From a bacterium (lineage in GTDB: Bacteria > Arandabacterota > Arandabacteria > Arandabacterales > JALGWA01): a stretch of 19,502 nucleotides of DNA. The DNA is taken from positions 1-19,502 of the forward strand of contig JASFEA010000052.1 in assembly GCA_050125095.1 (NCBI GenBank), read 5' to 3'. The notes under the pieces were generated by a model. The model was not told the DNA's origin, searched no databases, and worked only from the letters and a program-made list of their open reading frames with translations. Numbering within the stretch: position 1 is the stretch's first letter; every line of letters begins with the position of its first letter. Both the position numbers and the translations under genes were made by a program. Shown piece after piece: positions 2 to 15,648 of the stretch.

Positions 2-940
2 GAGGATGCCGAAAGCGTGGGATTGCCGCCGGATGAGCCCTGGTGGGGAGCTGCAGAAGACCTCGCGGCAATGGAGAGCTTCTTTTCCGACACGACCGTA
101 ATTAAAGTTGAAGCCGAAATATGGGTGGATTCGCCTGCGGTCTCGAGAGACAAGAACTCCAGCATGAGATGCTGGCCGTATATAAAGGTGTCAATGCAGA
201 GGGCCGGCTGGTCTGAACCGGCTATGATGACTGTTGAGGACACCTGGCTCTATTTCGAGTTTGTTAGAGATGAGGCGGACACGAACCTCTGGCGTATCTT
301 GAAGATGAGGGAAGAACTCAGGGAGAGTGTCAAGGCAAAGGCGTCCATGGCGACAGAGCCGGTCACATTCGGCCGCATAAAGGACATATTCAGACCCCGG
401 AGCCAATGCGAGATCAGCCCCAGGTCGACTCCCGAGTGTCTCTTCAGGGCATTCGAACAGGCCATGAACCGCAGGGATATCGACGCCTATTACGCCTGCC
501 TCCACGACGAATACCTGTTTGTATTCACTGCGCCCGACGCCGATGATATGGGACTGCCGCCGCTCGAACCGTGGTGGGGATTGGCCGAGGAGGTCAGTGC
601 AGTGGCCAGACTGTTTTCGGATCCCGGGATCACCATGGTCAAGTGCGCTCTACATATTGAGGCCGGCCCTTGGCCCATCGAGAACGGTTTCTTCTACGAG
701 CTTGATCCCGACATCACTGTGGTGATCGAAAGACCGGGCTGGAGCGAGCCCCTTGTCTACGAAGTCGAGTCGACCTGGCTCGAAGTGGAGGTCGTCCCGG
801 ATCCATATTGCCCCGAGAAGTGGGTTTTCGAGCGCATGTATGAGGTCTTCAAGGAGGGCCCTACGGCCGCCGGGGGATCCCATGCGGGACCTATGGTCGA
901 GGGATCCACCTTCGGCGGCATTAAGGCGATATACAAGTAG
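2..940 (+). CDS. 5'-truncated protein with at least two tandem copies of the 'CLHDEY/GLPP-PWWG' domain (possibly NTF2-like), each ending in a TFGxIK motif
   Basis: Frame is open from base 2 (EDAESVGLPPDEPWWG), so the GTG at 17 is internal. GLPPDEPWWG and GLPPLEPWWG, and GWSEP twice, mark two copies. Clear paralogy to 7376..8014 and 13788..14417. Confidence 0.85.
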   Translation, partial: EDAESVGLPPDEPWWGAAEDLAAMESFFSDTTVIKVEAEIWVDSPAVSRDKNSSMRCWPYIKVSMQRAGWSEPAMMTVEDTWLYFEFVRDEADTNLWRILKMREELRESVKAKASMATEPVTFGRIKDIFRPRSQCEISPRSTPECLFRAFEQAMNRRDIDAYYACLHDEYLFVFTAPDADDMGLPPLEPWWGLAEEVSAVARLFSDPGITMVKCALHIEAGPWPIENGFFYELDPDITVVIERPGWSEPLVYEVESTWLEVEVVPDPYCPEKWVFERMYEVFKEGPTAAGGSHAGPMVEGSTFGGIKAIYK

Positions 941-959
941 GCCGGTTTCCCGGCCTACT
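936..959. terminator. Perfect 10-bp hairpin between convergent genes, possible bidirectional terminator
   Basis: AGTAGGCCGG-tttc-CCGGCCTACT; no strong U-tract on either strand. Confidence 0.5.
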
Positions 960-993
960 CGGGATGCTTCCTTTATCTGGCTGTTCTCTCTGG

Positions 994-2823
994 CTAGCCC
1001 TTCACGTATTCGTCGTACTCGGGCTGCCACATGCGCCTGCGAATCTCGTTGGCCGACAGGGGCTTCCTGAGGCTGGCCTTGGCCTCGGGGTCCTTTATTG
1101 CCGCCTTTACCACCTCTGCGGCTATGTAGGCCGAGATGTCCCGCACCTTGTCCGCCGCGGTGATATTGCGCTTGGAGTCGTCGCGTATGCCCGGAAGCAC
1201 ATGTCCCTGGGACAGTAGCTCACCCTCGAACTCCTTCGTGTACTTGTAGAGAGCAACTGCGGAAGCCGTTACCATATTGTCAGTTACGACCTTTGCGCCG
1301 CTCTCGACCACGCCGCGCCCCAGACCCGGGAACGTCAGGAAGTTATTTGCCTGCGCGATGGGGTGGAGCCTTCCGTACTTGACCGGCTCGAACGGGCTTC
1401 CGGTGGCGACGATGGCCTTGCCCTTGGACCACTCGAATATCTGCGCCGGCGTAGCCTCATGGTTCGAAGTCGGATTAGACAGCGGGAACACGATGGGGCG
1501 CCTGTGCACGCACATGGCCTTGATTATGGGCCTGGTGAATTCCCCGGCCTTACCCGATGCGCCGATCAGTATGCCCGGCTTCACCTTGTTGACAAGGTCT
1601 TCAAGCGAAACGCGGCCTTTGAAGTTCTCTTTTCTCGCGAACTGGGCCTTATGCGGCGGGAGGTCGTCGCCCCGGTCCTCGTATATGAGTCCCTTGGAGT
1701 CGGTAAGGTAAATCTTGGAAAGCGCCGCCTTCTCGCTGAGCCCCCTCGCCATGAGGCCGTATCGAATCTGGCGCGCGATGCCGATGCCGCCGGCGCCTGC
1801 TCCATGTATGACTATAACGGAGTCCTTGAGGTTGCGTCCGCTGACATCAAGCGCGCCGAGAAGCGCCGCGTAGACGACCGCGCCGGTGCCCTGGATGTCG
1901 TCATTGAGACATCTCGTATTGTGTCTGTATCTTTCGAGGATGTCGAATGCCTTCTGTCCGCTGAAGTCCTCAAATTGAAGCACGGCGTCGGGCATGACCT
2001 TCTTGAAGGACTCGACGAATTTGTCCATAAAGATGAAGTAAGTGCCCTTCTCGAGCCTGGCGTGTCTGACGCCAAGGTAGTCCTTGTCCTGTAGGAGGGC
2101 TTCGGAGTTGGTGCCGACATCGAGGTCCACGGGCAGGCATGTCGTCGGCGCGAAACCGGCCGCCAGCGTGTAAAGGGCCAGTTTGCCCACAGTGATCTGG
2201 GAACCGCCGATGCCCTGGTCGCCTATGCCGAGGATGCCCTCGCTATCGGTCACGACTGCGATCTGTATGTCCCTGTTCGCCAGCCGCGATAATATGTCGT
2301 CCACATGGTCGATGTTCTCTGTGGTAATGAAGATGCCCGCCGGCCGCGCCATCCTGTGGCTCCAGGTCTGGCATGCCACACCCACCTCGGGGGTATAGAT
2401 GATGGGCAAGAACTCTTTGAGGTGATCCGTGACCACCCTGAAGAAGAGAGTCTCGTTTCTGTTCTTGAGATGCCTGAGGGCCGAGTAGAGAAGGTCGGGG
2501 TCGGAGATGCCCGTGCGCTTTATATTTCTGTATGCGATCTCCGACTGCTGGACTATGCTCCTTACGGCCGGAGGCAGCAGCCCCTCGAGCCCGAGCTCCT
2601 GTCGTTCGCGCTGCGTGAACGCCATGCCCTTATTGAGAAACGGGTCGTTGAGGAGGTCTCTTCCGGTCTTCTTGATTTTGCGCGTCTCTCCGCCATTGGA
2701 CTCAGGAATTACCGTCGCCGTCCTCGCGCGGCTCTTCCGGGCCGCTTTCCGGACAGCGGTTTTAGGGGATTTCTTGACGGACTTCTTTGCAGCCTTCTTC
2801 ACGGCCTTCTTCTTGGTTGCCAC
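994..2823 (-). CDS. maeA: NAD-dependent malic enzyme / malolactic-enzyme-like protein with Lys/Ala-rich N-terminal extension
   Basis: Motifs LLNDPFLNKGMAFT, IIYTPEVG, VTDSEGILGIGDQG, QFEDF, NDDIQGTG, GAGAGGIGIA, PLSNPT, QANN..FPGLG. GTG at 2823 is preceded by GGGAGG, so it is preferred over 2859. Confidence 0.92.
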   Translation of the reverse strand: MATKKKAVKKAAKKSVKKSPKTAVRKAARKSRARTATVIPESNGGETRKIKKTGRDLLNDPFLNKGMAFTQRERQELGLEGLLPPAVRSIVQQSEIAYRNIKRTGISDPDLLYSALRHLKNRNETLFFRVVTDHLKEFLPIIYTPEVGVACQTWSHRMARPAGIFITTENIDHVDDILSRLANRDIQIAVVTDSEGILGIGDQGIGGSQITVGKLALYTLAAGFAPTTCLPVDLDVGTNSEALLQDKDYLGVRHARLEKGTYFIFMDKFVESFKKVMPDAVLQFEDFSGQKAFDILERYRHNTRCLNDDIQGTGAVVYAALLGALDVSGRNLKDSVIVIHGAGAGGIGIARQIRYGLMARGLSEKAALSKIYLTDSKGLIYEDRGDDLPPHKAQFARKENFKGRVSLEDLVNKVKPGILIGASGKAGEFTRPIIKAMCVHRRPIVFPLSNPTSNHEATPAQIFEWSKGKAIVATGSPFEPVKYGRLHPIAQANNFLTFPGLGRGVVESGAKVVTDNMVTASAVALYKYTKEFEGELLSQGHVLPGIRDDSKRNITAADKVRDISAYIAAEVVKAAIKDPEAKASLRKPLSANEIRRRMWQPEYDEYVKG

Positions 2824-2918
2824 TTTGGCCTCCCAGTTAGAGCCCGGTGGGCTCTCCACCTATGTGTTTTTGCCGGCCCCGAAGGCGGCCGGCGATATCT
2901 TTTGGGCACATCGCGCTT

Positions 2919-2947
2919 ACCATAAGCTACTGGTCCCCGCTTGGCAA
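2919..2947 (-). promoter_or_regulatory. sigma70-type promoter for the malic enzyme gene
   Basis: Minus strand TTGCCA-17 nt-TATGGT. Confidence 0.5.
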
Positions 2948-2995
2948 GACCCAGTTCATATTAATTCCGGATAGCCGATGTCGCCGGGCGGCCGC

Positions 2996-3024
2996 TTGAC
3001 GATCGCCGGCTCAGATGTTATCGT
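2996..3024 (+). promoter_or_regulatory. sigma70-type promoter with extended -10
   Basis: TTGACG-17 nt-TATCGT with TG at 3016-3017. Confidence 0.55.
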
Positions 3025-3096
3025 AACCTTGTATGACCCCTGTGTAATGAAAAATCTAATAACTCCCGCGTGGCTTCAACTTCAAGGAGGAATCGC

Positions 3097-4020: not shown

Positions 4021-4069
4021 GAGCCACCGGCAGCAACATCAACATCGCCCGGCTCAGCACGCGGGTATC

Positions 4070-5140
4070 TCACCGGTAAAGCGACTTGATCGCTCCCCAG
4101 GTCACCGGCTCTGTGGCTTCTCCGCAGCCGCAGCTCCCTTCCCATGCTCCGATGTAGTGCGCGCAGTCGTGGCCACGCGGGTGGTTGCCCTCCAGACAGG
4201 GAGAACAGGTCTCCAGATAGAGCTGCGTGCCCGACGTATCGCAAAAAAGAGGATCGGCCGAGATGTTGCCGTAGACCGTATCCTGGTCGGCTATGTTCCC
4301 GACCCAGTCACCGCCGGAATTGCCGTATATGTCGCAGCACATCAGGCTCGGGGCATCTCCAGGAAGACTGGCGTACACGCCCTCGCTGCCGGCGTTAAAG
4401 GCTATGAGGCACCTGTAGAGCTGCGGCTGCGAGCCGAGCGTGGAATACAGGCCGGCGCCCAGATACCCGGCCGAATTGTTGATGAACGTGCATCCGGTTA
4501 ACCCCGGCGAAGACGAGTCCCCGCAGTAGATGGCGCCGCCGCTGGTCCCGGCCGAGTTCCTGGTCGCCGTGCAGGTGAAAAGCAAGGGGCACTGGCATTG
4601 CCAGAACTTCATCGCTCCGCCCGTGGCGGCCGCGTGGTTTTCAGTGAAGGTACACATTGTGAAACTCGGATCCGACGAGTAGGCCGCAACGGCGCCGCCG
4701 GACCCATCCGCCGAATTACCCTTGAAAAGACACCTGGTGAAGGCGCCCTCCGTGCCTCCCGAGCAGTATGCCCCACCGCCCTCGATCTCGGGGAAGTCGC
4801 CAGCCGCATATCCCCCTGTTATGGTGAATCCGCTTATCGTGGTGGTCCAATACAGGCCGTCGCAGTAGAACACACGGCCCAGTCCCTGGGCGTCTATACT
4901 AACGCAGTCGGGCAGGCCGGTGTCGCTGGTAAGCACCACTTCCGACTTCATCACGATGTCGTGTTCGTAATACGTGCCGCACTCGACGAGCACTGTATCG
5001 CCCGCGCCTGCCGAGTCCAGGCCGGCCTGGATCGTCGGGGCGTCACCGGTGCCCGCCGTATTGACGGTCCACGTGCGGGCCAGCAGGGGGGAGGCCGCAA
5101 AGAAGATACATAGTAAGGCACAGATGAATGGGGATTTCAT
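4070..5140 (-). CDS. Secreted right-handed beta-helix (pectin-lyase-like/Pmp-repeat) protein with C-terminal TWGAIKSLYR tail
   Basis: AGGAGG RBS before ATG 5140; signal peptide (LLA-R); GTGDAPTIQAGLDSA cap; FxxN...GGA repeats; paralog of 14428..15648. Confidence 0.85.
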   Translation of the reverse strand: MKSPFICALLCIFFAASPLLARTWTVNTAGTGDAPTIQAGLDSAGAGDTVLVECGTYYEHDIVMKSEVVLTSDTGLPDCVSIDAQGLGRVFYCDGLYWTTTISGFTITGGYAAGDFPEIEGGGAYCSGGTEGAFTRCLFKGNSADGSGGAVAAYSSDPSFTMCTFTENHAAATGGAMKFWQCQCPLLFTCTATRNSAGTSGGAIYCGDSSSPGLTGCTFINNSAGYLGAGLYSTLGSQPQLYRCLIAFNAGSEGVYASLPGDAPSLMCCDIYGNSGGDWVGNIADQDTVYGNISADPLFCDTSGTQLYLETCSPCLEGNHPRGHDCAHYIGAWEGSCGCGEATEPVTWGAIKSLYR

Positions 5141-5192
5141 CACACACCTCCTTTTTCTCTCGCTCGCTGCTCCACCTTGGGAAGATACCCAG

Positions 5193-5220
5193 ATTATAGT
5201 ACAAGAGAGCAAACAGTCAA
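5193..5220 (-). promoter_or_regulatory. Near-consensus sigma70 promoter for the beta-helix gene
   Basis: Minus strand TTGACT-16 nt-TATAAT, about 50 nt upstream of the start codon. Confidence 0.7.
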
Positions 5221-5359
5221 GTCAATGCCGTTTCGGCCCGTGCGGCAGGCCTCCGCGACGCCGTCGGCGATACGGCGGCGTCATGAAAAAAAGGCAAGAT
5301 TATGCTAACGACCTCCAATCATGCCATGGAATAAGCTGATAGCATTTGGGCCCAATTCG

Positions 5360-5368
5360 TGTTATAAT
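5360..5368 (+). promoter_or_regulatory. Extended -10 promoter element for the metalloprotease gene
   Basis: TGtTATAAT in an AT-rich divergent intergenic region. Confidence 0.55.
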
Positions 5369-5454
5369 GGAAAAGAGAGCAAAATAGGCCGGCAGAGGAC
5401 TATGCCCGTGGCCTCTGCGGCGCCATAACGGACCGGGCATGAGGAGTGAAGGAC

Positions 5455-7101
5455 ATGACCCTGCGCACATACCGGCTTTCTACAACGGTACTGGCGGGTG
5501 CAGCGCTTGCTTGCCTGCTCTTTATCTCTGTCGCTCCCCGGGGCACGGTGGAGCCAATGACCCCTGCTGCCACACTTGCGCAGCTGTTGTATTCCCAGGA
5601 CCCATTCGACCAGATCGTCCGCGGCGTCACCCTGCGGGGGCTCGCGCAGCAGGCGGCCAGGACCGGGTCCATAGATATCGGGCCGGTTGACGTCTGTCTC
5701 CATCCCGACACCAGTCCCGAGGACGCCGAGCGGATACTGAGGGAGCTTCCGACTTATATCCCCCTGCTTGAGAACGGCATGCTGGGTTACAACCGGAGCA
5801 ACCGCTGGTCGTATACCTGCATGGACGGCGCCACCGGATCAATCGGCGACCCCATAACCATCACTTGGGGTATTGTCCCCGACGGGACCTGGGCCGACGG
5901 CGGCAGCAGCAACCTGTTCGCCGTGTTCGACGCGCAATTCGGCGGTTCACTCTGGATGAACAAGGTAAGGAACGCCTTCGACCGCTGGGAGGCGGTCATC
6001 GGCATCACTTATATAGAGGTATCGGATGACGGCGCCAGCATGCCCGGCAGCAGCGGTTCCGTGGGCGTGCGCGGAGATGTCCGCATCGGCGGCAGGTCGA
6101 TTGACGGCTCCGGGAACGTGCTGGCATACAACTACTACCCCAATTGCGGCGACATGGTGCTTGACACGGACGATGCCAGTTTCTACAGCATCCCGATCGG
6201 CAACTATGGCAACCTCAAGAACGTCGTATGCCATGAGCACGGCCATGGCATGGGCCTCGGCCACGTTATCCCCGAGAACTGCACCAAGCTCATGGAGGCC
6301 TATCAGTGCGGCGGAGGCACGTTTGTCGGTCCGCAGGACGACGACATACGCGGCGGCATGCGCAACTACGGCGACCGTTACGAGAATAACGACACCAACG
6401 CCGAGCCGACCGACCTCGGCACAATAGTCGATACGCTCAGGGTCGAGACGGTGTCCATAGATAACGGGGTGTCCGATGTCGACTGGTATCTCATAAACTG
6501 CACGAGCCTCGACCTGACCATAGAAGTGGATCCCATAGGCTCGGGCTACATGTGCGGCCCCGAGGGCGGCACGGCTTCGTGGGTGAGAACCGATTCCATA
6601 TCCGATCCGGACATAGAGCTATACGATGCCACAGGTACGACGCTGCTGGAGAGCGCCACGAGCTGCACGATGTGCGAGACGGAGGTGCTGAGCTGCACGC
6701 TTCCGAGCACTGGCAGCTACCAGGTGCGCGTATTCCGCAAGACCGGTACGGGCAATAATGTGCAGTGTTACAACATGACCATTTACTATGATGAAGGGTC
6801 GGGCATCGAAGTGGCGAGCGGGGACGACGGGCTTGCGACCTCGGTCTATCCGAGCCCCTTCGCCGGCCAGACCACGGTCAGGTTCATGGCACCGGCCGAG
6901 GGAGCTTATGCGGTCGATGTATATGACGTCGGCGGCCGGCGCTCGAGATCTATGGAGGGCTACGCATCAGGGCCGGGCTGGGTCGAATCCGTATGGGACG
7001 GGCGCGACCAGGACGGACGGGAAGTCGCAAGCGGGATTTATTTCATACGAGTCCGCCTGGCCGGCTTCGTGGAGACGGACCGGGTGCTCGTGGTGCGTTA
7101 G
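5455..7101 (+). CDS. Secreted matrixin (M10-like metzincin) metalloprotease with PPC-like domain and FlgD-Ig/T9SS-like C-terminal domain
   Basis: GAGGAG RBS 8 nt before ATG 5455; HEHGHGMGLGH zinc motif; Met-turn KLMEA; LAYNYYP..GDMVLD; DVDWY...DPDIELYD (PPC-like); YPSPF...YDVGGR...WDGRDQDGREVASGIYF tail. Confidence 0.88.
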   Translation: MTLRTYRLSTTVLAGAALACLLFISVAPRGTVEPMTPAATLAQLLYSQDPFDQIVRGVTLRGLAQQAARTGSIDIGPVDVCLHPDTSPEDAERILRELPTYIPLLENGMLGYNRSNRWSYTCMDGATGSIGDPITITWGIVPDGTWADGGSSNLFAVFDAQFGGSLWMNKVRNAFDRWEAVIGITYIEVSDDGASMPGSSGSVGVRGDVRIGGRSIDGSGNVLAYNYYPNCGDMVLDTDDASFYSIPIGNYGNLKNVVCHEHGHGMGLGHVIPENCTKLMEAYQCGGGTFVGPQDDDIRGGMRNYGDRYENNDTNAEPTDLGTIVDTLRVETVSIDNGVSDVDWYLINCTSLDLTIEVDPIGSGYMCGPEGGTASWVRTDSISDPDIELYDATGTTLLESATSCTMCETEVLSCTLPSTGSYQVRVFRKTGTGNNVQCYNMTIYYDEGSGIEVASGDDGLATSVYPSPFAGQTTVRFMAPAEGAYAVDVYDVGGRRSRSMEGYASGPGWVESVWDGRDQDGREVASGIYFIRVRLAGFVETDRVLVVR

Positions 7102-7177
7102 GCCCTGTACTCGAGACCAGCTGAATGGTTACGATTTAATCAGAACAACAGACATATTTTAGAGGTAGATAGAGAGA

Positions 7178-7224
7178 AGCGCGGCGCAGCAGCCCGACAC
7201 GGCAGGCGCCGCGCTCTTCTTTTC
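7178..7224 (+). terminator. Probable intrinsic terminator after the protease gene
   Basis: Stem AGCGCGGCGC (7178-7187) / GCGCCGCGCT (7206-7215) followed by CTTCTTTTC. Confidence 0.6.
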
Positions 7225-7314
7225 GCCCGGATGCCGCCGGGGTCCCTTGTCAATCCGACCTTCGAGACCCGGCGCTTTCGGGGGCCTTGCACCGGCGGGC
7301 TCGACACCCGGCCC

Positions 7315-7343: not shown

Positions 7344-7375
7344 CATAGCGAGCAAGCGAGGAGGTAGAACTCACT

Positions 7376-8014
7376 ATGAAGACCAGACCAATCCTGGCGG
7401 CACTTGCCGTCATGTCGCTCGCGATTCTCGTCTCCTGCGGAGACGATAACGGCGCCAATGTCAACGGCGGGCCTGAATACTCGCGGGCGACGCCGGAGGA
7501 TCTCATTCGCGCCCTTGCCGCTGCCCTCGAGGAAGAGGAAATCGACGTCTACGCTGAATGTCTGCATGATGAGTATTTATTCGAGTTCCTGCCCGGGGAC
7601 GCGGGCAGCGCGGGCCTTCCCCCCGATGGGCCCTGGTGGGGGAAGACCGAGGACGTGGCCTCCACATCCAACATGTTCGCGGCCGCGTTCGTTACGCGGA
7701 TCGAATGTGAATTGCCTGTGGACACGGGGCCGTGGGCTACCGACGAGGGCTTGGGCTTCAGACTCGATGCGATAATCAAGGTGACCAGCGAGGGGGGTGG
7801 CTATACTGAGCCGCGGGTATACATGGTCCAAGATTCGTATCTATATGCAGAGGTCGTAACTGACCCATATGATGGCGGCAAGTGGGTATTCAAGGCTCTT
7901 TTGGAGGCAAAGAAGGAAGGCCTCACAGCCGGGCCGGGGCCAGACCCGGGCAGGCTTACGGAGCCTACGACTTTCGGCAGCATAAAGGCGTTGTTCAGAC
8001 CGGAGGGCTTGTGA
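7376..8014 (+). CDS. Lipoprotein of the 'CLHDEY/GLPP-PWWG' family with TFGSIKALFR tail
   Basis: Lipobox LVSC; strong RBS; EYSRATPE, CLHDEY, GLPP..PWWGKT, GPW, DPYD..W shared with 13788..14417. Confidence 0.88.
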   Translation: MKTRPILAALAVMSLAILVSCGDDNGANVNGGPEYSRATPEDLIRALAAALEEEEIDVYAECLHDEYLFEFLPGDAGSAGLPPDGPWWGKTEDVASTSNMFAAAFVTRIECELPVDTGPWATDEGLGFRLDAIIKVTSEGGGYTEPRVYMVQDSYLYAEVVTDPYDGGKWVFKALLEAKKEGLTAGPGPDPGRLTEPTTFGSIKALFRPEGL

Positions 8015-8288: not shown

Positions 8289-8321
8289 AAGGGCTGTCCG
8301 GAGACTTCGGCAACTGCAGGC

Positions 8322-11300
8322 CTATGATCTACGTTTGCCGCGCGCGTTCTTCACGAGCCCGGTCAGAGCGGCGGCCGCGTGCCCGGGCCTGAGCCCCCCT
8401 TCGAACAGGCTGTAAACCACCGGGATCAGGACCAGCGTAATCAGCGTCGACGAGATGAGGCCGCCTATCACCACGCGCGCCAGGGGGGCCTGGGCCTCGC
8501 CGCCCTCACCCAGACCGAATGAAAGCGGCACAAGCGCGAGCACCGTTGTGGCCGCAGTCATGAGAATGGGGCGGAGGCGCCGCGCGCCCGCGAGCCTGAT
8601 GGCTTCCATCATTTCCTTGCCCTCATCGCGCCTCAGGCGGTTGGTGTAATCCACGAGCAGTATGGCGTTGTTAACCACGATGCCGGCCAGCATGATGCAG
8701 CCTATGAAGGCCTGCATGCTGAATATAGTGGCCGTCAGGATCATCAGGAGGACTATCCCCACTATGGCCATGGGTATGGAGAAGAGCACCACGAATGGAT
8801 CGCGGAAGGACTCGAACTGGCCCGCCATCACAAGGTATACGAGCAGGACGGCGATGATGAATCCCAGCAGGAGCTCGCGGAAGGCCTCCTGCTGCTCCTC
8901 ATAGTCGCCGCCGAACAGGATGGCGAAGTCCCTGGGCACGGGCACTGACCTCAGGCCGTCGCGGATGTCCGAGATCACCGAGCCCATGTCGCGCCCCGTG
9001 AAGTTGGCGTCGACGGTTATGATGCGCTCCTGGTCCTTGCGCTCGATGCTGACCGGACCCTCTTCCGGGGCCGTCTTGATGACGTTCCTTAAGATCACCG
9101 GCTCGCCGCGGTTATTCACCACGGTGAGGTCGAGAAGGTCGTCGAGCTCGCGCCGATCTTCTTCGCTCAGGCGCACGAGTATTCGGTACTCCTTGCCGGC
9201 CTCGCGGTAATAGGAAGCATACGTACCGCCGACGGCGGTCTCCAGCGCGTCGCCGATGCGCGCTACCGTAAGCCCCAGGTCGGCGGCCTTCTGGCGGTCT
9301 ATGCTGATGACGCGTTCGGGGCTCCCTTCCTGGCGGCTCACCCGCGTATCCGTGATTCCCGGAACGTCCGCCACGACTTCTTCGACGCGTGCGGCCAGCC
9401 CCTGCGCGGTCTTAAGGTCATAACCGCGCACCTCCACGCTGATATTGTCGCCGCTCGATGAGCCCATGCGCAGCAGAAAGAGTCCCTGGCCCGCTCGCGT
9501 CCTCAGCGTAACCCCGGGAATGCCCGAGAGCGACCGCCTGAGTTCGTTTGCGACGTCCTCGCTGCTCCGCCTGCGCTCGGCCCTGGGAACGAGCGTGAGC
9601 CTCACCTGTGCGGTATGGCCTCCCCGTGAACGCCAGCCTCCACCGCCCACGCGGGAGAGCATCGACACCATCTCGGGCACCTCACGGCGCACGGTCTCCT
9701 CGATGGCAAGTACGGCACGGTCCACTACTTCGAGGCGAGTCCCCACCGCCATCTCTATGTCTATGCGCACTTCGCCCTCGTCCGCGGCGGGCATGAGCTC
9801 TACGCCTATGAAGCGGATCAGCACCACAGATATAACGAAGAGAAGCGCCGTCATACCGATAACCGACTTGCGGTGACCGAGCGCCCAGTCGAGGCTCCGT
9901 CTGTAGCGGTCCTCAATGCCGCATATGACGCGCTCGCTCGCGGCGAAAGCCCGCCTCAGCCAGCCGAGCCCACCCGGCCGGCGGCCGGGGATGCCTGCCC
10001 GGGCGGCGCCGGCTCCGGCCCCGGCTGCAACCGGGCCGCCTCCTTCAGCACTGCCGCCTGCGGGTACGCTGCATGGTCGCCTCGGGTCCCCCGCCGCCCC
10101 GAACCTCAAGAACTTGCTCGCCAGCACCGGGATCAGCGTGAGAGCTACGATGAGCGAGCACAAGAGCGAGAAACTCACCACGTAGGCCATCTGCCGGAAC
10201 ATGATACCCGAGATGCCGCGTATGAAGACCACGGGGAGGAAGACCACGATGGTCGTGAGCACGCTGGCGAGTATCGCAGCCGATACCTCACCGGTGCCCT
10301 TGACTGCGCTCACCTCGGGCGTCTCGCCCTGTTCACGGTGCCGGTATATGTTCTCTATGACCACGATTGCGCTGTCCACGAGCATGCCTATGCCCAGCGC
10401 GAGGCCCCCGAATGTCATGATGTTGAGGGTGAAGCCGCTGAAGTACATGAGGCCGAATGTCGCCAGCACCGAGATGGGAATGGCAGTGGCCACGATGGCC
10501 GTGGACGAGATGCTCCTCAGGAAGAGAAGCAGGATAACGATGGCGAGTATGCCGCCGAGTATGGCGGAACGACCGACATTGTTCACCGACTGCTTTATGT
10601 ACGTCGAGGTGTCGATGAGGGGGATGAGCCTTATCTGCGGGAGGTCGCGGTTGATGCGCTCGATCTCGGCGTTGGCGGCCTCGGCCACCTTGACCGTGTT
10701 TGCGCCCGACTGCTTGCTCACGGAGATCCGGAGGCCCGGCTGGCCGTCTATGCGTATGAGCTGCCGCACCTCTTCCCATGAGTCCTCAACCTGGGCGATG
10801 TCCCTGATCTGTATGGGCGTGCCGCCGCGCATGGTGACTACCGTGTACTCTATTTCTTCGATCGACGTGAACTCGCCCTGCGTCCTTATCAGGACCTCCG
10901 ACGTTCCCTTCTCGTAAAGCCCGGCGGGCACGTTGCGGTTCTCGTTGCGGAGAGCGGCTATCACGGCCTCGGCGGATATTCCGAGGGCCTTGAGTTTCGC
11001 AGCCTTGAGATTGACGTGGACCTCGCGCGTCAGGCCGCCCCATATATCGACGGCCGCCACGCCCGGCACGCGTTCGAGGCGGTACTTGACCTGGTCTTCC
11101 GTGAGCTGGCGGAGGTCGCGCGCATTCATATTGCTGGCGACGCCCGTTATAAGAATGGGAAATGCCGAAAGGTCGAACTTGCGTATCATGGGCCGCTCGA
11201 TGTCCTCCGGCAGCCTATCCAGCACCCGGTCTATGCGGTCGCGTATGTCATTGGCGGCCTCGTCGAGCTCGGTGCCCCAGGCGAAGGACATCCTCACCAG

Positions 11301-11567
11301 GCTCCGGCCCTCCGTGGAGCTGGAGCTTATCTCCTCTACGCCCTGCACGGCCGCGAGGGCCTCCTCTATGGGCCTGGTCACGAGCTCTTCCATCTCCTGC
11401 GGCCCTACGTTTCCGTAGCTCGTGACCACGGAAATCGTGGGATAGGTGATCTCGGGCATGAGATCGATGGAGAGCCTTGAGAGCGATACCGCGCCCAGAA
11501 TGATAACTACGAAGAATATGACCAGCGTCAGGATGGGCCGCCTTACCGGCCCCTCTGCAGTGTTCAT
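8322..11567 (-). CDS. RND efflux permease (AcrB/AcrD/AcrF family)
   Basis: 1081 aa; GMLVDSAIVVIENI, GIVVNNAILLVDY, RLRPILMT, PLARVVIGGL; two large periplasmic loops. Confidence 0.95.
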   Translation of the reverse strand: MNTAEGPVRRPILTLVIFFVVIILGAVSLSRLSIDLMPEITYPTISVVTSYGNVGPQEMEELVTRPIEEALAAVQGVEEISSSSTEGRSLVRMSFAWGTELDEAANDIRDRIDRVLDRLPEDIERPMIRKFDLSAFPILITGVASNMNARDLRQLTEDQVKYRLERVPGVAAVDIWGGLTREVHVNLKAAKLKALGISAEAVIAALRNENRNVPAGLYEKGTSEVLIRTQGEFTSIEEIEYTVVTMRGGTPIQIRDIAQVEDSWEEVRQLIRIDGQPGLRISVSKQSGANTVKVAEAANAEIERINRDLPQIRLIPLIDTSTYIKQSVNNVGRSAILGGILAIVILLLFLRSISSTAIVATAIPISVLATFGLMYFSGFTLNIMTFGGLALGIGMLVDSAIVVIENIYRHREQGETPEVSAVKGTGEVSAAILASVLTTIVVFLPVVFIRGISGIMFRQMAYVVSFSLLCSLIVALTLIPVLASKFLRFGAAGDPRRPCSVPAGGSAEGGGPVAAGAGAGAARAGIPGRRPGGLGWLRRAFAASERVICGIEDRYRRSLDWALGHRKSVIGMTALLFVISVVLIRFIGVELMPAADEGEVRIDIEMAVGTRLEVVDRAVLAIEETVRREVPEMVSMLSRVGGGGWRSRGGHTAQVRLTLVPRAERRRSSEDVANELRRSLSGIPGVTLRTRAGQGLFLLRMGSSSGDNISVEVRGYDLKTAQGLAARVEEVVADVPGITDTRVSRQEGSPERVISIDRQKAADLGLTVARIGDALETAVGGTYASYYREAGKEYRILVRLSEEDRRELDDLLDLTVVNNRGEPVILRNVIKTAPEEGPVSIERKDQERIITVDANFTGRDMGSVISDIRDGLRSVPVPRDFAILFGGDYEEQQEAFRELLLGFIIAVLLVYLVMAGQFESFRDPFVVLFSIPMAIVGIVLLMILTATIFSMQAFIGCIMLAGIVVNNAILLVDYTNRLRRDEGKEMMEAIRLAGARRLRPILMTAATTVLALVPLSFGLGEGGEAQAPLARVVIGGLISSTLITLVLIPVVYSLFEGGLRPGHAAAALTGLVKNARGKRRS

Positions 11568-11588
11568 AAGCGCTGCCGCCTCACCTCT

Positions 11589-12767
11589 TTAGGCCTCGGG
11601 CCCGCCGCCCGGCTCGCCGCCTTCACCTTCGGGCAGAATCACGGTGCTCCCTTCCTGGAGAAGATGCTGGCCCAGCGTCACCACCCGGCCTGTGAGCACG
11701 GGCTCCAGGATTTCGGTAAGGTCGGAGGAGGTTATGCCTACGCGCACGGAAACATAGTGCGCTGTGGTCTCGCCGTCGCGCACCAGGAACAGGCCGCTGT
11801 CGCCGTTTCGCGTCACCACGGCCTGCGTGGGCACGACCTGCGCCGAGTCCTTCTCGGAGAGCGCCAGCGTCACCGTGCAGAACATGCCGGGTTTGAGGTA
11901 AAGGGAGTCGTTTGAGACAACCACTTCCATCTGCGCTACGCGCGAAGATTCCTCGAGCTTGGGCGCGATACGGCTCACCTGCCCGGCGAAGACCATGTCC
12001 GGGAAAGTGTCCACGCGGATGTCGGCCGTCTGGCCCGGCCTCACCTGGCCGTAGACGCGCTCTATCACCGTGGTCTGCACTATGACGGTGTCTATGCCGA
12101 TTACCGAGACAACCGGCGAGTTGGGAGAGAGGAGGCTTCCCTCATCGGCGAAGCGCTCTCCCACGAAGCCGGGCTCGGCCGCCACCAGGTTGGTGTATCC
12201 CAGGCGTATGCGAGCCGCGTTGAGGGCCGCCTGCCTCTGTTCCACCTGCGCCTCGGCAAGCTCTATCCGGGACCTGAGGGCGTCGTACTTGGTCTGGCCG
12301 GCGTCCAGGTCCGAGCGCGGGGCGATCTGCATCTCATGAAGCGACCTGACGCGCTCGAGCTCCTGACGGGCCAGTTCGAACTGGCTCTTGGTCTCGGCCA
12401 GATTGGCCCGGGCTATCCTCAGATTGGCCTCGGCCTCGAGCACCAGCTGCTGGTACTCGCCGTCGTCTATCCTGGCCACCAGCTCGCCCGTATCCACCCA
12501 GTCGCCGATGCGCTTGTTTATTCTGAGGATGCGGCCCGACACCTTGGGGGCCACAATGTACTGGTAAAGAGGGGATATAGTGCCGGTCATCTGCATGGTC
12601 TCGCGTATGGGCCGCCGGGACACCTCGGCGAGTTCCACGGCCACCGGCGGACTTGAAAAGCGTCCCGAGCCACCGCCCGTGCCGCCCATGACGAGCGCGC
12701 CGATGCGCCAGATAAGCACCGCGGCAAGCGCCCCTACCGCTATGTATGCAATTTGCTTTCTATTCAT
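11589..12767 (-). CDS. RND efflux periplasmic adaptor (membrane fusion protein)
   Basis: N-terminal TM; lipoyl-like PKVSGRI...GDWVDTGELVARID; alpha-hairpin; LKPGMF; directly upstream of the permease. Start may instead be TTG 12776. Confidence 0.93.
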   Translation of the reverse strand: MNRKQIAYIAVGALAAVLIWRIGALVMGGTGGGSGRFSSPPVAVELAEVSRRPIRETMQMTGTISPLYQYIVAPKVSGRILRINKRIGDWVDTGELVARIDDGEYQQLVLEAEANLRIARANLAETKSQFELARQELERVRSLHEMQIAPRSDLDAGQTKYDALRSRIELAEAQVEQRQAALNAARIRLGYTNLVAAEPGFVGERFADEGSLLSPNSPVVSVIGIDTVIVQTTVIERVYGQVRPGQTADIRVDTFPDMVFAGQVSRIAPKLEESSRVAQMEVVVSNDSLYLKPGMFCTVTLALSEKDSAQVVPTQAVVTRNGDSGLFLVRDGETTAHYVSVRVGITSSDLTEILEPVLTGRVVTLGQHLLQEGSTVILPEGEGGEPGGGPEA

Positions 12768-12827
12768 ATTCGCCAATCCGCCTTCGGGCCCCGCAGTTGT
12801 AAAGGTAATACCGGGGAAGACTATTTT

Positions 12828-12869
12828 CCACTATTAGATGCGGGATTACCACCATTAGATGTAAATCCC
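12828..12869. repeat. 13-bp direct repeat (21-bp period) overlapping a GGGATT/AATCCC inverted repeat upstream of the RND operon
   Basis: CCACTATTAGATG (12828-12840) and CCACCATTAGATG (12849-12861). Confidence 0.55.
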
Positions 12870-12944
12870 ATGCGCCGGCGCCGCCGCGACCGCAAGGGCG
12901 GGACCCCTCAGGGCAGCCGCCACGGCCGGCCTCAGCGCATGTGC

Positions 12945-12973
12945 TTGCGGCAGCAGCCTCACTTGGATATACT
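12945..12973 (+). promoter_or_regulatory. sigma70-type promoter
   Basis: TTGCGG-17 nt-TATACT; implies the ORF-track start at 12941 is too far upstream. Confidence 0.6.
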
Positions 12974-13024
12974 GAAACAGGAGCGAGCGGGAACCGCTAT
13001 ATTAATCTCAAAAGCGGGGTGGTC

Positions 13025-13669
13025 ATGAACCATGAGATCAAACTGGCCGAGAAGGAGAATCTCCGCCAGGAACTCCAGTCGCTCAAGGATTGCCAGGTTC
13101 GCTATTTCGCCGTAACCATCACGTCGGCTGCCGCCATACTCGGGATAGGGAGCCAGCTGGGCAGGCCGCAGGACCTTACCCTCCTTACTCTTGCGCCTCT
13201 TCTCATCACGCTGCCGTGCTGGTGGATCTTCTTCGACAAGGCCACAACCATCACCAGAATAGTCGCCTATGTCCGGGTGCTTGAGGAACTCATTATCGCA
13301 CCCGGGGAGGCCAGGCAGGAGTATATCGGCTGGGAGCGGGCGCTGTACCTGTTTCGACAGGACCTCCAGAGACTCAGACCGTCCGACCGCCTCAAGCGGC
13401 TGGGAGAGGGCCTCAAGGTCGGCGCGCTGCACGGGCTTACTTTCCGAACCACGCATCGGTACTGGGTCATTAACTGGTATACATTTCTGGGCATTTCCCT
13501 CTACTGCATAGTGCTCAGTCACTCGCGCACCGGGCACAATGGATACTGGGTGGTCTTTCTGGTGCTCTTCTGCGCCTCGAGTTTGTTTAACCTGAGCGTC
13601 CTGGGCAGGCTGATAGGGGGCGCAAACTCGTATGATTTCAATGAGACATCCTGGCGCAGGCTGCTGTAG
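13025..13669 (+). CDS. Hypothetical integral membrane protein (about 4 TM)
   Basis: N-terminal helix EKENLRQEL, two TM pairs separated by a soluble segment (ITRIVAYVRVLE...IGWE); ATG 13025 lies downstream of the promoter. Confidence 0.75.
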   Translation: MNHEIKLAEKENLRQELQSLKDCQVRYFAVTITSAAAILGIGSQLGRPQDLTLLTLAPLLITLPCWWIFFDKATTITRIVAYVRVLEELIIAPGEARQEYIGWERALYLFRQDLQRLRPSDRLKRLGEGLKVGALHGLTFRTTHRYWVINWYTFLGISLYCIVLSHSRTGHNGYWVVFLVLFCASSLFNLSVLGRLIGGANSYDFNETSWRRLL

Positions 13670-13710
13670 TGATTGTGAATTCGTCAATGCGTTCAGCCGT
13701 TTTGTGCCCA

Positions 13711-13739
13711 TGGACAGAGTCAGTTCTGAATGGTAAGAT
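13711..13739 (+). promoter_or_regulatory. sigma70 promoter with extended -10
   Basis: TGGACA-17 nt-TAAGAT with TG at 13731-13732. Confidence 0.55.
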
Positions 13740-13787
13740 TGTAAGGGGAGCAAAGACCAGGGCTGAGAACGGAGGGTGGTATCAATC

Positions 13788-14417
13788 ATGAGAACATTAG
13801 CGGTATTTATAGCGGTGGCAGTGCTGTCGCTGGCGCTTCTCACTTCCTGCAGCGACGACGAGGCAGCTCAGAACACCGAGCCGGAGTACTCTCGGGCCAC
13901 GCCCGAGGAGCTCATAGCCGCGCTGGCATACGCCCTCGAGGAAGAGCAAATTCTCATCTACGATGAGTGCCTGCATGACGAGTACCAATTCGAATTCCTG
14001 CCCCAGGACGCTGACGACGCGGGGCTTCCGCCCGAGGCGCCCTGGTGGGGAAAGACCCAGGATGTATCTGCCGTATCGGGCGTATTCTCGGACCCCATGG
14101 TCAAGAATATAGAAAGCGAGATCTGTGTCGACGCGGGCCCATGGACTTTGCCTGAAGGCGTGGGTTACAGGCTCGATCCCTCCATGGAGTTCACCATTAG
14201 CAGAGAGAGCGTGCCTGAGGACACGACGCTCTATGTCGGCAATTCATATCTGTACGTGGAGATCGCGCGTGACCCTTACGACGATGATCTATGGGTATTC
14301 AAGACAATAGAGGAGAGACTGAAGGAAGGCCTGAGTGCGTCCTCGGTGCTTGATTCTCATTCATCTTCAACACCCTACACCACGCTCGGCAGCATGAAGG
14401 CCAGATACGCGAAGTGA
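13788..14417 (+). CDS. Lipoprotein of the 'CLHDEY/GLPP-PWWG' family with degenerate TLGSMKARY tail
   Basis: Lipobox LTSC; GGAGGG RBS; aligns over its whole length with 7376..8014. Confidence 0.88.
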   Translation: MRTLAVFIAVAVLSLALLTSCSDDEAAQNTEPEYSRATPEELIAALAYALEEEQILIYDECLHDEYQFEFLPQDADDAGLPPEAPWWGKTQDVSAVSGVFSDPMVKNIESEICVDAGPWTLPEGVGYRLDPSMEFTISRESVPEDTTLYVGNSYLYVEIARDPYDDDLWVFKTIEERLKEGLSASSVLDSHSSSTPYTTLGSMKARYAK

Positions 14418-14427
14418 GGTGATTTCA

Positions 14428-15648
14428 ATGGAGAATTCGCTAAGAGCAACTGCGGTACTGTTTGCAATTACCACATTCGTGACGGCATATCCGGCTCTTG
14501 CACGCGACTGGTACGTCAGGCCCGACGGCACCGGAGACGCCCCCACCATACAGGCCGCCATAGACTCGGCAGCCTCAGGCGATGAGGTGTTCTTGACGAA
14601 CGGGGTGTTCACCGGCGACGGCAACCGCGATATCGACACCGGCGGCAAGGCCGTGGTCATAAGATCAGAAGGCGGCGATCCGGACTCGTGCGTCATCGAC
14701 TGCCAGGCGAACAGCCTCGACCCCCACCGGGGCTTCAACTTCTCCAATGGGGAGGGACCTACGACGAGACTTGAGGGCATCATGATAAAGAACGGCTGGC
14801 AGCATGGCGCTGCCGTCCGCATAAGATATGCCTCGCCGGCGATCATGGGCTGCAAGATGTGCGGCGGCAAGGGCGGAACGGGAGGGGCGCTCAACATCTC
14901 CGGCGGCTCCGAGGCCACGTTCGAAGACTGCGAGTTCTTCTCCAATACCGCGAGCGACGGCGGAGCCGCGGCCATAGGGGGAGAGGTCCGCCCGGTCTTC
15001 ATATCATGCTATTTCCACCACAACACCGCAAATGTGGAAGGAGGGGGTATACGGGCAGGCGACGCGAGTCTTGAGCTTGTCGACTGCATCTTTACCCACA
15101 ATCACGGGTATGAGGGCGGGGCAATCCATCTCGACCTCTGCGAGTCCGACCTCCTGATTACGGGATGCACTTTCGCTCACAACTCGGCTGACCATGGGGC
15201 GGGCATCTATAACTCGCGCGGCTCGCCGACATTTGAATACTCCACCTTCGTGTATAACGGCGGCCCTCACATTTTCTACTTCGGACGGGAGGTGCAACTC
15301 GTCAATTGCATCCTGGCCTACTCCGCTTCCGGCCCGGCCATTTACTGCAATATCTCCGACCCCGGACCGACTCTCACCTGCTGCGACATCTACGGTAACG
15401 CCGGCGGCGACTGGGTCGGCTGCTATGCGGCGCAGCTGGGAATCAACGGCAATCTCTCTGCCTGCCCGTCCTTCTGCTGGGCCGATGAGGGCGACTATCG
15501 CCTATGTGACGAGTCGCCTTGCGCACCCGGCAATCACCCTGACGGTTACGAATGCGGGCTCATAGGAGCATGGGAGGTAGGCTGCTCCTGCGGACCCACG
15601 CGGGCCGAACCTACAACCTGGGGCAAAATGAAGGCAATGTACAGGTAG
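14428..15648 (+). CDS. Secreted right-handed beta-helix (pectin-lyase-like/Pmp-repeat) protein with C-terminal TWGKMKAMYR tail
   Basis: GAGGTG RBS; signal peptide ALA-R; DGTGDAPTIQAAIDSA; FxxN...GG[AG] repeats; CCDIYGNAGGDWVG cap shared with 4070..5140. Confidence 0.87.
   Translation: MENSLRATAVLFAITTFVTAYPALARDWYVRPDGTGDAPTIQAAIDSAASGDEVFLTNGVFTGDGNRDIDTGGKAVVIRSEGGDPDSCVIDCQANSLDPHRGFNFSNGEGPTTRLEGIMIKNGWQHGAAVRIRYASPAIMGCKMCGGKGGTGGALNISGGSEATFEDCEFFSNTASDGGAAAIGGEVRPVFISCYFHHNTANVEGGGIRAGDASLELVDCIFTHNHGYEGGAIHLDLCESDLLITGCTFAHNSADHGAGIYNSRGSPTFEYSTFVYNGGPHIFYFGREVQLVNCILAYSASGPAIYCNISDPGPTLTCCDIYGNAGGDWVGCYAAQLGINGNLSACPSFCWADEGDYRLCDESPCAPGNHPDGYECGLIGAWEVGCSCGPTRAEPTTWGKMKAMYR

Follow-up and report, generated by a model that had tools for sequence, protein, structure and literature searches.

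Why do exported proteins of unrelated families in one bacterial genome end in the same short peptide? The question is raised by a stretch of 19,502 nt (the window, meaning the whole stretch of DNA that was analysed), in which a sequence-only reading had reported six copies of such a tail in five genes and proposed that they are a protein-sorting signal. All six tail peptides were found, in frame and in five genes, at the positions listed below, where the ranges including the stop codon are those of the earlier reading, which had counted it in for the last five of the six.

2..940, plus strand: 5′-truncated gene with two tandem NTF2-like ("CLHDEY") domains, a tail after each (translation)
350..394, plus strand: internal degenerate tail ATEPVTFGRIKDIFR (profile E = 0.12; 185 residues from the end)
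896..937, plus strand, stop codon 938-940: terminal tail VEGSTFGGIKAIYK, a TFG variant (profile 27.2 bits)
4070..5143, minus strand: signal-peptide beta-helix protein (Beta_helix, Chlam_PMP repeat) with a tail at its end (domain search)
4073..4117, minus strand (4070-4117 with stop): its tail ATEPVTWGAIKSLYR (profile 40.1 bits)
5446..7101, plus strand: M10 metalloprotease with a PPC domain and a type IX secretion system (T9SS) type-A C-terminal domain, CTD (TIGR04183 30.2 bits, cut-off 23; Peptidase_M10, FlgD_ig, PPC)
7376..8014, plus strand: NTF2-like lipoprotein, lipobox LVSC (translation, model, fold search)
7958-8011, plus strand (7958-8014 with stop): its tail TEPTTFGSIKALFRPEGL (translation)
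13776..14417, plus strand: NTF2-like lipoprotein, lipobox LTSC (translation, paralogue comparison)
14370-14414, plus strand (14370-14417 with stop): its degenerate tail TPYTTLGSMKARYAK (translation, motif search)
14419..15648, plus strand: signal-peptide beta-helix protein (domain search)
15601-15645, plus strand (15601-15648 with stop): its tail RAEPTTWGKMKAMYR (profile 43.7 bits)

In each of the four carriers whose N-terminus is visible, the protein starts with a signal peptide or lipobox (LVSC in 7376-8014, LTSC in 13776-14417, and hydrophobic N-termini in 4070-5143, minus strand, and 14419-15648), and the cytoplasmic and inner-membrane proteins of the window (malic enzyme, RND pump, aminotransferase) end without the tail, both as had been claimed. 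The metalloprotease gene supplies the other C-terminal module, the CTD, amid the tail genes of the window. In an RNA library, two 151-base contigs fell in 13776-14417 (13755-13905 and 13968-14118) and none on the rest of 13700-15700, which is too sparse to call expression or silence.

The truncated gene at 2..940 holds the one internal copy. Its two domains are 43-47% identical to single-domain paralogues, and in the alignment the cysteine that follows the internal tail (…FRPRSQCEIS…) falls on the lipobox cysteine of the single-domain forms, so that the product looks like a fusion of two adjacent lipoprotein genes. The same order of domain, tail, domain and tail was found in C167:1128-2288. 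Within this NTF2-like lipoprotein family, the tail is absent from 3 of 20 members, and from 1 to 6 or more extra residues are tolerated.

The position of the tail was evaluated by searching the complete genome (3.35 Mb), translated in six frames, with the pattern T[WFL]G.[IM]K..[YF]. There were 42 matches, of which 41 lay no more than 5 residues from a stop codon, in keeping with the predicted C-terminal enrichment, and exactly one residue followed the motif in 34; the internal ATEPVTFGRIKDIFR at 350..394 was the only strict match away from a C-terminus. In the same search the reversed motif gave 0 matches, and 30 position-shuffled motifs gave 0-2 each. Open frames of 180-730 residues lead into the tail. 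The consensus is (C)-x-G-P-[ST]-A-x-E-P-[ST]-T-W-G-x-I-K-[SA]-[LM]-[YF]-[RK]-COOH, that is, about 18-22 residues comprising a Pro/Ser/Thr/Glu linker and then an invariant ten-residue core (…TWGxIKxLYR), in which T, W, G and K vary little or not at all across phyla. The tails are encoded with three Thr codons, four Gly codons, five Arg codons and all three stop codons, and the DNA 3′ of the tails is unrelated between copies. Because synonymous codons differ and the downstream DNA is unrelated, the conserved unit is the peptide and not a DNA repeat.

The sequence-only reading had seen the tail on two protein families, and restriction to these would have counted against a general signal. A profile search of the genome found 58 carriers, which fall into 28 unrelated BLAST groups. 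A signal peptide was present in 51 of the 58, and the 7 without one are mostly truncated genes; by a crude but stricter heuristic, 43 of 52 tail proteins have one, compared to 648 of 2448 proteins with neither tail nor CTD. Among 51 carriers scanned against Pfam, 31 had no domain, and the domains found in the others were Beta_helix/PMP/NosD, DUF11, CBM_20, X25, PD40, LTD, LTXXQ, RTX and FlgD_ig. The LTXXQ/Spy-like, TolB-like propeller and NosD-like passengers are typically periplasmic, which fits retention as well as export. The carriers have a median length of 284 residues versus 655 for CTD proteins, and tail genes number 54 of the 2824 called genes, about 2% of the genome. The best reading of these sequences is that the tail represents a portable, strictly C-terminal tag on Sec-exported proteins.

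It had been suggested that the tail is a short amphipathic helix. In an AlphaFold2 model of the product of 7376-8011 (mean pLDDT 85.9), for which Foldseek returned NTF2/SnoaL-like folds (best E 3.6e-6), a strand at residues 194-198 is followed by a helix at 200-206, with a mean pLDDT of 93 over residues 201-210. A helix of about 7 residues in the core, after a strand, agrees with the suggestion in this one model of one family; its amphipathic character is only moderate, with helical hydrophobic moments of 0.43-0.55 and W, I and L/M-Y on one face. The beta-type moment is as high as the helical one in 2 of 3 tails computed.

Neither Pfam-A nor NCBIfam holds a model that matches the tail. NCBIfam sorting-signal models searched against 35-residue tails gave no match at E up to 10, and PDB sequences contained nothing matching. 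One carrier gave a sub-threshold match to "choice-of-anchor J" (NCBIfam), and an Atlas lead, scored 0.86, pointed to a choice-of-anchor R / IPTL-CTERM cluster. Literature searches on a TWGxIK-type motif, on type IX secretion in Eisenbacteria, and on C-terminal sorting in Eisenbacteria or Krumholzibacteria returned nothing relevant among mainly open-access papers. The tail is undescribed in databases and searchable papers.

The tail is widespread in particular lineages. It was found in all 18 genomes of its own small phylum, in 147 of 151 sampled Eisenbacteria and in all 12 genomes of a third phylum. Its distribution is uneven in the Latescibacterota/Krumholzibacteria group (64 of 101 genomes), and only 10 of 303 other bacterial genomes have it. 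In a DNA-pattern scan of species representatives, 123 of the 124 matches listed were genuine tails. The sequence-only reading had named three phyla with similar tails: record titles bore this out for Eisenbacteria and Krumholzibacteriota, whereas no Poribacteria were among the 124 matches listed.

A possible relation to T9SS, which the sequence-only reading had missed, is suggested by five observations: the tail swaps with the CTD, excludes it, clusters with it, ends like it, and is nearly confined to T9SS-bearing genomes. With regard to interchange, BLAST gave 70 pairs of a tail carrier and a CTD-bearing paralogue at E below 1e-6. Of the window proteins, the beta-helix protein at 4070..5143 (minus strand) has paralogues with a T9SS CTD in place of the tail, and the product of 14419..15648 is 40% identical to a CTD-bearing paralogue. 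Elsewhere some of these paralogues are direct neighbours (C32:15409 and C32:16469; C17:16067 lies between two CTD paralogues). With regard to exclusion, an HMM built from the CTDs of this genome matched 0 of 54 tail proteins, and the tail was found on 0 of 158 CTD proteins. Por_Secre_tail likewise gave no match on the tailed window proteins, on 51 carriers scanned with Pfam or on 47 scanned with NCBIfam, the one exception in these scans being C108, in which an FlgD_ig domain stands ahead of a degenerate tail.

As to clustering, 26 of the 213 genes within three positions of tail genes are CTD genes, versus 5.6% genome-wide, and tail and CTD genes are likewise interleaved in four other genomes. 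Arg or Lys is the final residue of 45 of the 54 tails and of 132 of the 158 CTDs, compared to 510 of 2612 other proteins, and both modules have a conserved Lys 4-5 and a conserved Thr 7-9 residues before the end. The genome itself encodes SprA (contig C2) and, as a gene pair, PorU (C39:14185-17463) and PorV (C39:17581-18261), and it has no fewer than 150 matches to the CTD. SprA was present in all 64 tail-positive genomes of the Latescibacterota/Krumholzibacteria group, in 5 of 5 further tail-positive genomes, and in 141 of 147 tail-positive Eisenbacteria; PorU-type matches were found in 4 of 5 of the remaining genomes tested. T9SS is not sufficient for the tail, since all 101 genomes of the Latescibacterota/Krumholzibacteria group have SprA and only 64 have the tail; records labelled Bacteroidota were also missing from the 124 pattern matches listed. 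The co-occurrence may also reflect mere shared ancestry, because all tail-bearing lineages are related (uncultured phyla of the FCB type).

A search for a co-distributed PorV-like or other reader, which the sequence-only reading had envisaged, found none that tracks the tail. PorV-like barrels number 4-7 per genome in both five tail-rich and five tail-free genomes of one phylum, and in a quick tree of 47 PorV-like sequences the main orthologue groups occur in both sets. The one tree group without tail-free members yielded an outer-membrane candidate (C187:624-1745 of genome G000), but it has clear orthologues in the tail-free genomes G208 and G215. A second PorU-like paralogue is likewise shared by tail-rich and tail-free genomes, and the PMT_2-TPR enzyme adjoining C204 is matched in 123 of 321 genomes, tail-free ones included. 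Among the 213 genes that lie no more than three positions from one of the 54 tail genes, the sole recurrent non-cargo group is heterogeneous and linked via TPR repeats (three sulfatase-family proteins, two PMT_2-TPR, one M56-TPR, one Ser/Thr kinase-TPR and one short TPR fragment). Eight tail-gene islands of 16-20 kb in five other genomes had no recurrent partner, only CTD genes, kinase-TPR and PMT_2-TPR. No recurrence was seen among neighbouring genes whose products combine a signal peptide with an aromatic C-terminus, and a sortase-like partner was not found.

We consider it rather probable that the tail serves as a tag for sorting or anchoring and has a partner that reads it. Once the protein has been exported by Sec, an envelope protein would probably recognise the core and the free basic C-terminus in trans, and this recognition would set the fate of the passenger, which might be retained, anchored or carried across the outer membrane. 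Because the tag fills the slot of the T9SS type-A CTD on paralogous passengers, our working model is that T9SS-bearing envelopes could have two classes of cargo, with the tag marking the second, possibly as a minimal signal that resembles the last strand of the CTD (motif E); coupling to T9SS is a part of the reading that we put forward tentatively, as rather less likely to hold than not to.

Several other explanations have to be weighed against such a tag. The tail might anchor its passenger by itself, as a short amphipathic helix with Trp/Tyr and Lys/Arg residues that adheres to LPS or to the interfacial zone of a membrane leaflet and, like the C-terminal helices of PBP5 or MinD, needs no dedicated reader; the modelled helix, with W, I and L/M-Y on one face and the moments given above, and the failure to find a reader gene would suit this. 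However, T, W, G and K are near-invariant across phyla and the C-terminal register is exact (34 of 42), the helix has only about 7 residues, and the beta-type moment is as high in 2 of 3 tails, so that we regard self-anchoring as unlikely. Similarly improbable is a docking peptide that, in the manner of a dockerin, attaches small secreted proteins to a scaffold at the surface or to an outer-membrane protein of high abundance, either non-covalently or covalently, in the latter case with the invariant Lys or Thr linked or modified. It would fit the small size of the carriers (medians of 284 and 655 residues), their mostly binding or adhesin-type modules, the location of their genes among those of large CTD-bearing surface proteins, and the invariance of Lys and Thr. 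In addition, TPR membrane enzymes of Ser/Thr-modifying type adjoin some tail genes (3 of 9 sulfatase-family genes and 2 PMT_2-TPR genes), and in six relatives the PMT_2-TPR orthologue lies on the same contig, about 0.2-4.5 kb from tail matches. Yet a receptor domain was not identified, and these adjoining enzymes belong to widespread multi-copy families and stand beside a minority of tail genes.

PDZ-type readers use C-terminal register and last residues, and both are conserved in the tail; its free C-terminus might thus be the ligand of a periplasmic PDZ-type protease or chaperone and govern maturation or turnover rather than location. Degradation is hard to reconcile with a tag that about 2% of genes encode, that has persisted across phyla and that alternates with a secretion domain on paralogues, and we think this very improbable. 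Finally, the tail might have no shared function: it could simply complete the structure of each fold, or it could be an artefact that arises from a DNA repeat, faulty assembly or a wrongly called reading frame. The pLDDT of 93 for the tail in the single model might mean packing on its own domain, but the 28 unrelated passenger groups, the synonymous codon variation, the unrelated flanks, the open frames of 180-730 residues ahead of the tail and its presence in hundreds of independent assemblies make this explanation scarcely credible.

On a bolder reading, the tail may mark an undescribed sorting or surface-attachment route for thousands of proteins in Eisenbacteria and in its own and neighbouring uncultured phyla, served by its own reader or working as one-strand minimal T9SS cargo without a folded CTD, with the invariant Thr or Lys as a possible site of attachment or modification; we hold this to be plausible, if somewhat short of an even prospect. 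A folded CTD is regarded as essential for type IX secretion. Sortases, exosortases, rhombosortases and the T9SS sortase are all machines that came to light through C-terminal sorting tags. A stripped-down T9SS signal would bear on which part of the CTD is recognised, and a reader of its own would point to an undescribed envelope pathway. Almost all genomes sampled from at least three uncultured phyla have the tail, and these phyla are common inhabitants of soil, sediment and wetland; the tail would allow the envelope or surface proteome of unculturable organisms to be predicted. A portable ten-residue tag is also a potentially useful tool.

Compared with known systems, the tail resembles the tripartite signals (LPXTG/sortase, PEP-CTERM/exosortase, GlyGly-CTERM/rhombosortase, MYXO-CTERM and IPTL-CTERM), which consist of a motif, a TM helix and a basic cluster, in being a short conserved motif that ends many unrelated exported proteins per lineage, with dozens of copies per genome. 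It differs, as the sequence-only reading had maintained for LPXTG, PEP-CTERM and GlyGly-CTERM, in that no TM helix or basic cluster follows: the proteins end within 5 residues of the motif (41 of 42), typically one residue past it. Signals read at a free C-terminus include peroxisomal PTS1, bound by the TPR protein PEX5, and PDZ ligands such as the outer-membrane protein C-termini read by DegS. Like these, the tail stands in fixed register to the carboxyl end with its last residues conserved; unlike them, it is longer (10 residues), has an invariant T-W-G, and belongs to the bacterial envelope. The beta-signal of outer-membrane proteins, in which an aromatic residue at the C-terminus closes a beta-strand, was rejected as an identity, the terminal residue being Arg or Lys in 45 of 54 tails and aromatic (Trp) in 1 of 52 listed. 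The C-terminal amphipathic membrane-targeting helices of PBP5, MinD and FtsA are likewise short, carry aromatic and basic residues and lie at the very end, but they span two or more turns and are conserved in character and not in sequence, whereas the tail is sequence-invariant across phyla and its helix is much shorter.

The nearest likeness is to the T9SS type-A CTD (TIGR04183 / PF18962 Por_Secre_tail, and its FlgD_ig-like form), which also occupies the extreme C-terminus of signal-peptide proteins behind a flexible linker, on the same passenger families and in the same genomes, with a hydrophobic-hydrophobic-Arg/Lys ending and a conserved Lys upstream. According to PMC11969387, CTDs are defined by a beta-sandwich or a sheet of at least three strands with motifs B, D and E; they can go from 7 to 3 strands with cleavage and glycosylation retained, and short three-strand CTDs are described from Prevotella intermedia. 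The tail, at 10-20 residues versus 40-80 for the CTD, is too short for either a beta-sandwich or a three-stranded sheet and matches no CTD model (0 of 54 with the CTD HMM), and we rejected its assignment as a CTD of known type, in agreement with the earlier view that it is not a folded T9SS CTD. It has a modelled strand and helix in place of the beta-sheet domain with motifs B and D, and what it shares with the CTD is only the motif-E-like Lys and the basic terminus.

The source genome (3.35 Mb in 268 contigs, each designated here by C and a number, the window being C52) was scanned for T[WFL]G.[IM]K..[YF] over all six-frame stop-to-stop segments. It was found that 41 of the 42 matches lay within 5 residues of a stop, with precisely one residue between motif and stop in 34 of the 42; as controls, the reversed motif gave no matches and 30 position-shuffled motifs gave 0 to 2 each. 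The C-terminal enrichment on which the sequence-only reading had staked its proposal of a protein-sorting signal was therefore found. A profile built from 34 tails recovered 58 segments with a terminal tail (E < 0.1), referred to as carriers, and these formed 28 BLAST groups (E < 1e-5) after removal of the last 24 residues, extending the tail beyond the two families in which it had been noticed. The consensus was (C)-x-G-P-[ST]-A-x-E-P-[ST]-T-W-G-x-I-K-[SA]-[LM]-[YF]-[RK]-COOH, with a Cys 9 to 12 residues ahead of the tail Trp in 32 of the 58 carriers. In 23 tails that share one residue pattern, 3 to 5 different codons encoded each of Thr, Gly, Ile and Arg, all three stop codons were used, and the downstream DNA was unrelated. 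Therefore, selection acts on the peptide, and the tail is not a DNA repeat.

Neither Pfam-A nor NCBIfam (release 20) had a model that covered the tail, whether whole proteins were compared or, at E up to 10, 35-residue tails; the match to a described family HMM that would have refuted the sequence-only reading was thus not seen. PDB sequences gave no match to a profile of 124 tails at E up to 10, and a full-text literature search on the motif, and on type IX secretion and C-terminal sorting in Eisenbacteria, found no paper in a collection short of most subscription journals.

Tail profile matches were present in 18 of 18 genomes of this phylum, at least 14 to 52 in each, the per-genome counts being lower bounds. 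When one genome of each prokaryotic species was scanned with a degenerate DNA pattern encoding T-W-G-x-I-K-x-x-Y-R-stop, at least 124 stretches matched. Among the matches listed, 123 of 124 had an open frame and a tail-type upstream linker, the exception being a Sulfurimonas record with stops; the labels among these listed matches were MAGs of Candidatus Eisenbacteria/Eiseniibacteriota, Krumholzibacteriota, Latescibacterota and Zixiibacteriota, a few Gemmatimonadota, one Acidobacteriota, or plain 'bacterium'. The genome samples gave the following.

Occurrence of the tail in genome samples
Eisenbacteria sample: 147/151 genomes (146/150 without the unpublished genome G060)
Phylum of genome G045: 12/12 genomes
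Phylum with Latescibacteria- and Krumholzibacteriota-labelled MAGs: 64/101 genomes at E up to 1e-5, with at least 10 copies in 12 of these
Outside this phylum, in a broad draw of 321 genomes: 10/303 genomes, with at least 7 copies in six of these

The tail is real, highly non-random and widespread.

A simple hydrophobicity test identified a signal peptide in 51 of the 58 carriers. Of the other seven, four are truncated at a contig end or next to one, two are the 3′ parts of genes split by an in-frame TGA, whose 5′ parts do have a signal peptide, and one is unexplained. A stricter test, based on our own crude gene calls (2824 genes), gave 43/52 for tail proteins, 92/128 for proteins with the type IX secretion (T9SS) type-A C-terminal domain (CTD; TIGR04183/PF18962) and 648/2448 for the rest, which supports the proposed tie between the tail and signal-peptide proteins. 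A lipobox-like motif was seen in 4 of the 58. The carriers are short (median 284 residues, versus 655 for CTD proteins), and a Pfam scan of 51 carriers found a domain in 20 and none in 31; the domains were beta-helix/PMP/NosD, DUF11, CBM_20, pullulanase X25, PD40 propeller, lamin-tail, LTXXQ/Metal_resist, RTX repeats and FlgD_ig.

One secreted family, Cys-rich and about 290 residues long, matches nothing in Pfam or NCBIfam; it has 10 paralogues in the source genome (L001, L003, L227-L231, L237, L244 and L247) and 51 further loci in other MAGs, and the tail is at the end of almost every member. Separately, an in-frame TGA occurs at the same position (...G-[LI]-G-TGA-[SR]-G...) in three paralogous tail-bearing genes for secreted CBM-like proteins:

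C15:27815-28390, minus strand
C80:4965-5498, minus strand
C124:1-191, plus strand

Some 20 bases 3′ of the TGA there is a conserved hairpin (GUCGCCGGGAGCGRC), and a tRNA-Sec is encoded at C59:11231-11325. These three genes are candidate exported selenoproteins.

Within the window, all six tail peptides reported earlier were confirmed in frame and in place, five ending genes and one, at 350-394, internal. The assignment of their carriers to beta-helix and 'CLHDEY' proteins likewise held (Pfam; AlphaFold2/Foldseek).

Tail genes of the window and a CTD gene between them
2-940, 'CLHDEY' carrier
4070-5143, minus strand, signal-peptide beta-helix carrier (Pfam Beta_helix and Chlam_PMP)
5446-7101, metalloprotease with a T9SS type-A CTD (TIGR04183, 30.2 bits, cut-off 23)
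7376-8014, 'CLHDEY' carrier
13776-14417, 'CLHDEY' carrier
14419-15648, signal-peptide beta-helix carrier (Pfam Beta_helix and Chlam_PMP)

Two of the three 'CLHDEY' proteins are lipoproteins, their lipoboxes being LVSC and LTSC. The AlphaFold2 model of 7376-8011 (mean pLDDT 85.9, 20 aligned sequences) was placed by Foldseek among NTF2/SnoaL-like folds (best E 3.6e-6). Gene 2-940 comprises two such domains with a tail after each, as does its paralogue C167:1128-2288, and its internal tail is directly followed by a Cys that lines up with the lipobox Cys in single-domain forms. The internal copy appears to be a relic of fused neighbouring NTF2-like lipoprotein genes, and both proteins of this layout appear to be such fusions, in which the first tail and the second lipobox Cys were kept internally. 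In this family, 17 of 20 members have a T-F-G variant with 0 to 6 or more extra residues, and 3 of 20 have no tail.

Elsewhere in the window, an RND (AcrB-type) pump, identified by eye at 8322-11567 (minus strand), has, mid-protein, a low-complexity insert that is rich in Gly, Ala, Pro and Arg and some 60 residues long. In a wetland metatranscriptome library, two 151-base contigs showed ≥99% matches to the lipoprotein gene 13776-14417, within 13755-14118, a weak signal that does not prove transcription.

The tail is probably a portable C-terminal tag that sorts or anchors exported proteins by way of a putative envelope partner that reads it. For one family, the modelled shape is in line with the short amphipathic helix proposed earlier: in the sole model, that of 7376-8011, the linker (194-198) is a strand and F200-L206 a helix (mean pLDDT 93 over 201-210), and the helical hydrophobic moment was 0.43-0.55 for three typical tail cores. 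A rival is that the tail is an amphipathic anchor that inserts by itself; others make it a docking or modification peptide, or a processing tag. The neighbours of tail genes in the source genome were heterogeneous, and no specific reader candidate emerged from them. The co-distributed PorV-like or barrel receptor envisaged by the sequence-only reading did not materialize: PorV-like and PorU-like paralogues were equally present in tail-rich and tail-free genomes, orthologues of a candidate barrel occur in tail-free genomes, and a PMT_2-TPR glycosyltransferase, rejected as a tail-specific reader, had matches in 123 of 321 genomes.

This glycosyltransferase gene (C204:1315-3501) adjoins a tail gene that belongs to the Cys-rich 'WRIYL' family, and its orthologues in six relatives (G003, G004, G006, G010, G012 and G014) share a contig with tail matches, at distances of no more than a few kb; it may be a cargo-specific modification enzyme. 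Orthologous Ser/Thr kinase-TPR genes at C8:36098-39280 and, in genome G200, L318:2112-4562 (37% identity over 714 residues) each adjoin tail genes, in two different phyla. A small ORF beside the latter (L318, 4535-5110) is, by eye, an ECF-type sigma factor candidate.

A tentative reading is that the tail defines a minimal class of T9SS cargo, and a bolder one is that it may mark a new pathway. The source genome has SprA above the family cut-off, PorU above cut-off (C39:14185-17463) immediately upstream of the best PorV-like gene, and at least 150 CTD matches, with 158 C-terminal CTD proteins by our own HMM. SprA was present in 64/64 tail-positive genomes of the Latescibacterota/Krumholzibacteria group, 5/5 outlying high-quality tail-positive genomes and 141/147 tail-positive Eisenbacteria. 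Four of five SprA-less tail-positive Eisenbacteria tested (G106 left out) had a PorU-type match (E up to 1e-30), two above cut-off, and one tail-positive Eisenbacteria genome, G181, had neither SprA nor a PorU-type match. T9SS nearly always accompanies the tail in tail-positive genomes. However, SprA was present in 101/101 genomes of the Latescibacterota/Krumholzibacteria group, 37 of them without the tail, and therefore T9SS is not sufficient for it; because the tail lineages are all related, the co-occurrence may merely reflect ancestry.

Tail and CTD are found on the same passengers: 70 BLAST hit pairs joined carriers to CTD-bearing paralogues in the source genome, every beta-helix carrier being among those paired. 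C32:15409 (tail) and C32:16469 (CTD) are adjacent paralogues, and C17:16067 (tail) sits between two CTD paralogues. Of the 213 genes no more than 3 positions from a tail gene, 26 were CTD genes, versus 5.6% genome-wide, and tail and CTD genes are also interleaved in islands of genomes belonging to two further phyla. No protein of the source genome combined the two, save a contig-end fragment, C108:10306-10719 (minus strand), where a degenerate tail (...TEPGTWGGIKAGVKEK) comes after a complete FlgD_ig domain that is T9SS CTD-like.

The final residue was Arg or Lys in 45/54 tails, 132/158 CTDs and 510/2612 other proteins. The two ends are also alike in pattern, T-x-K-h-h-h-h-[RK] in the T9SS CTD and T-W-G-x-I-K-s-h-h-[RK] in the tail (h, hydrophobic; s, small). 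According to PMC11969387, T9SS CTDs cut from seven strands to three still allow cleavage and glycosylation; the tail would take this shortening further, to roughly the last strand of the CTD.
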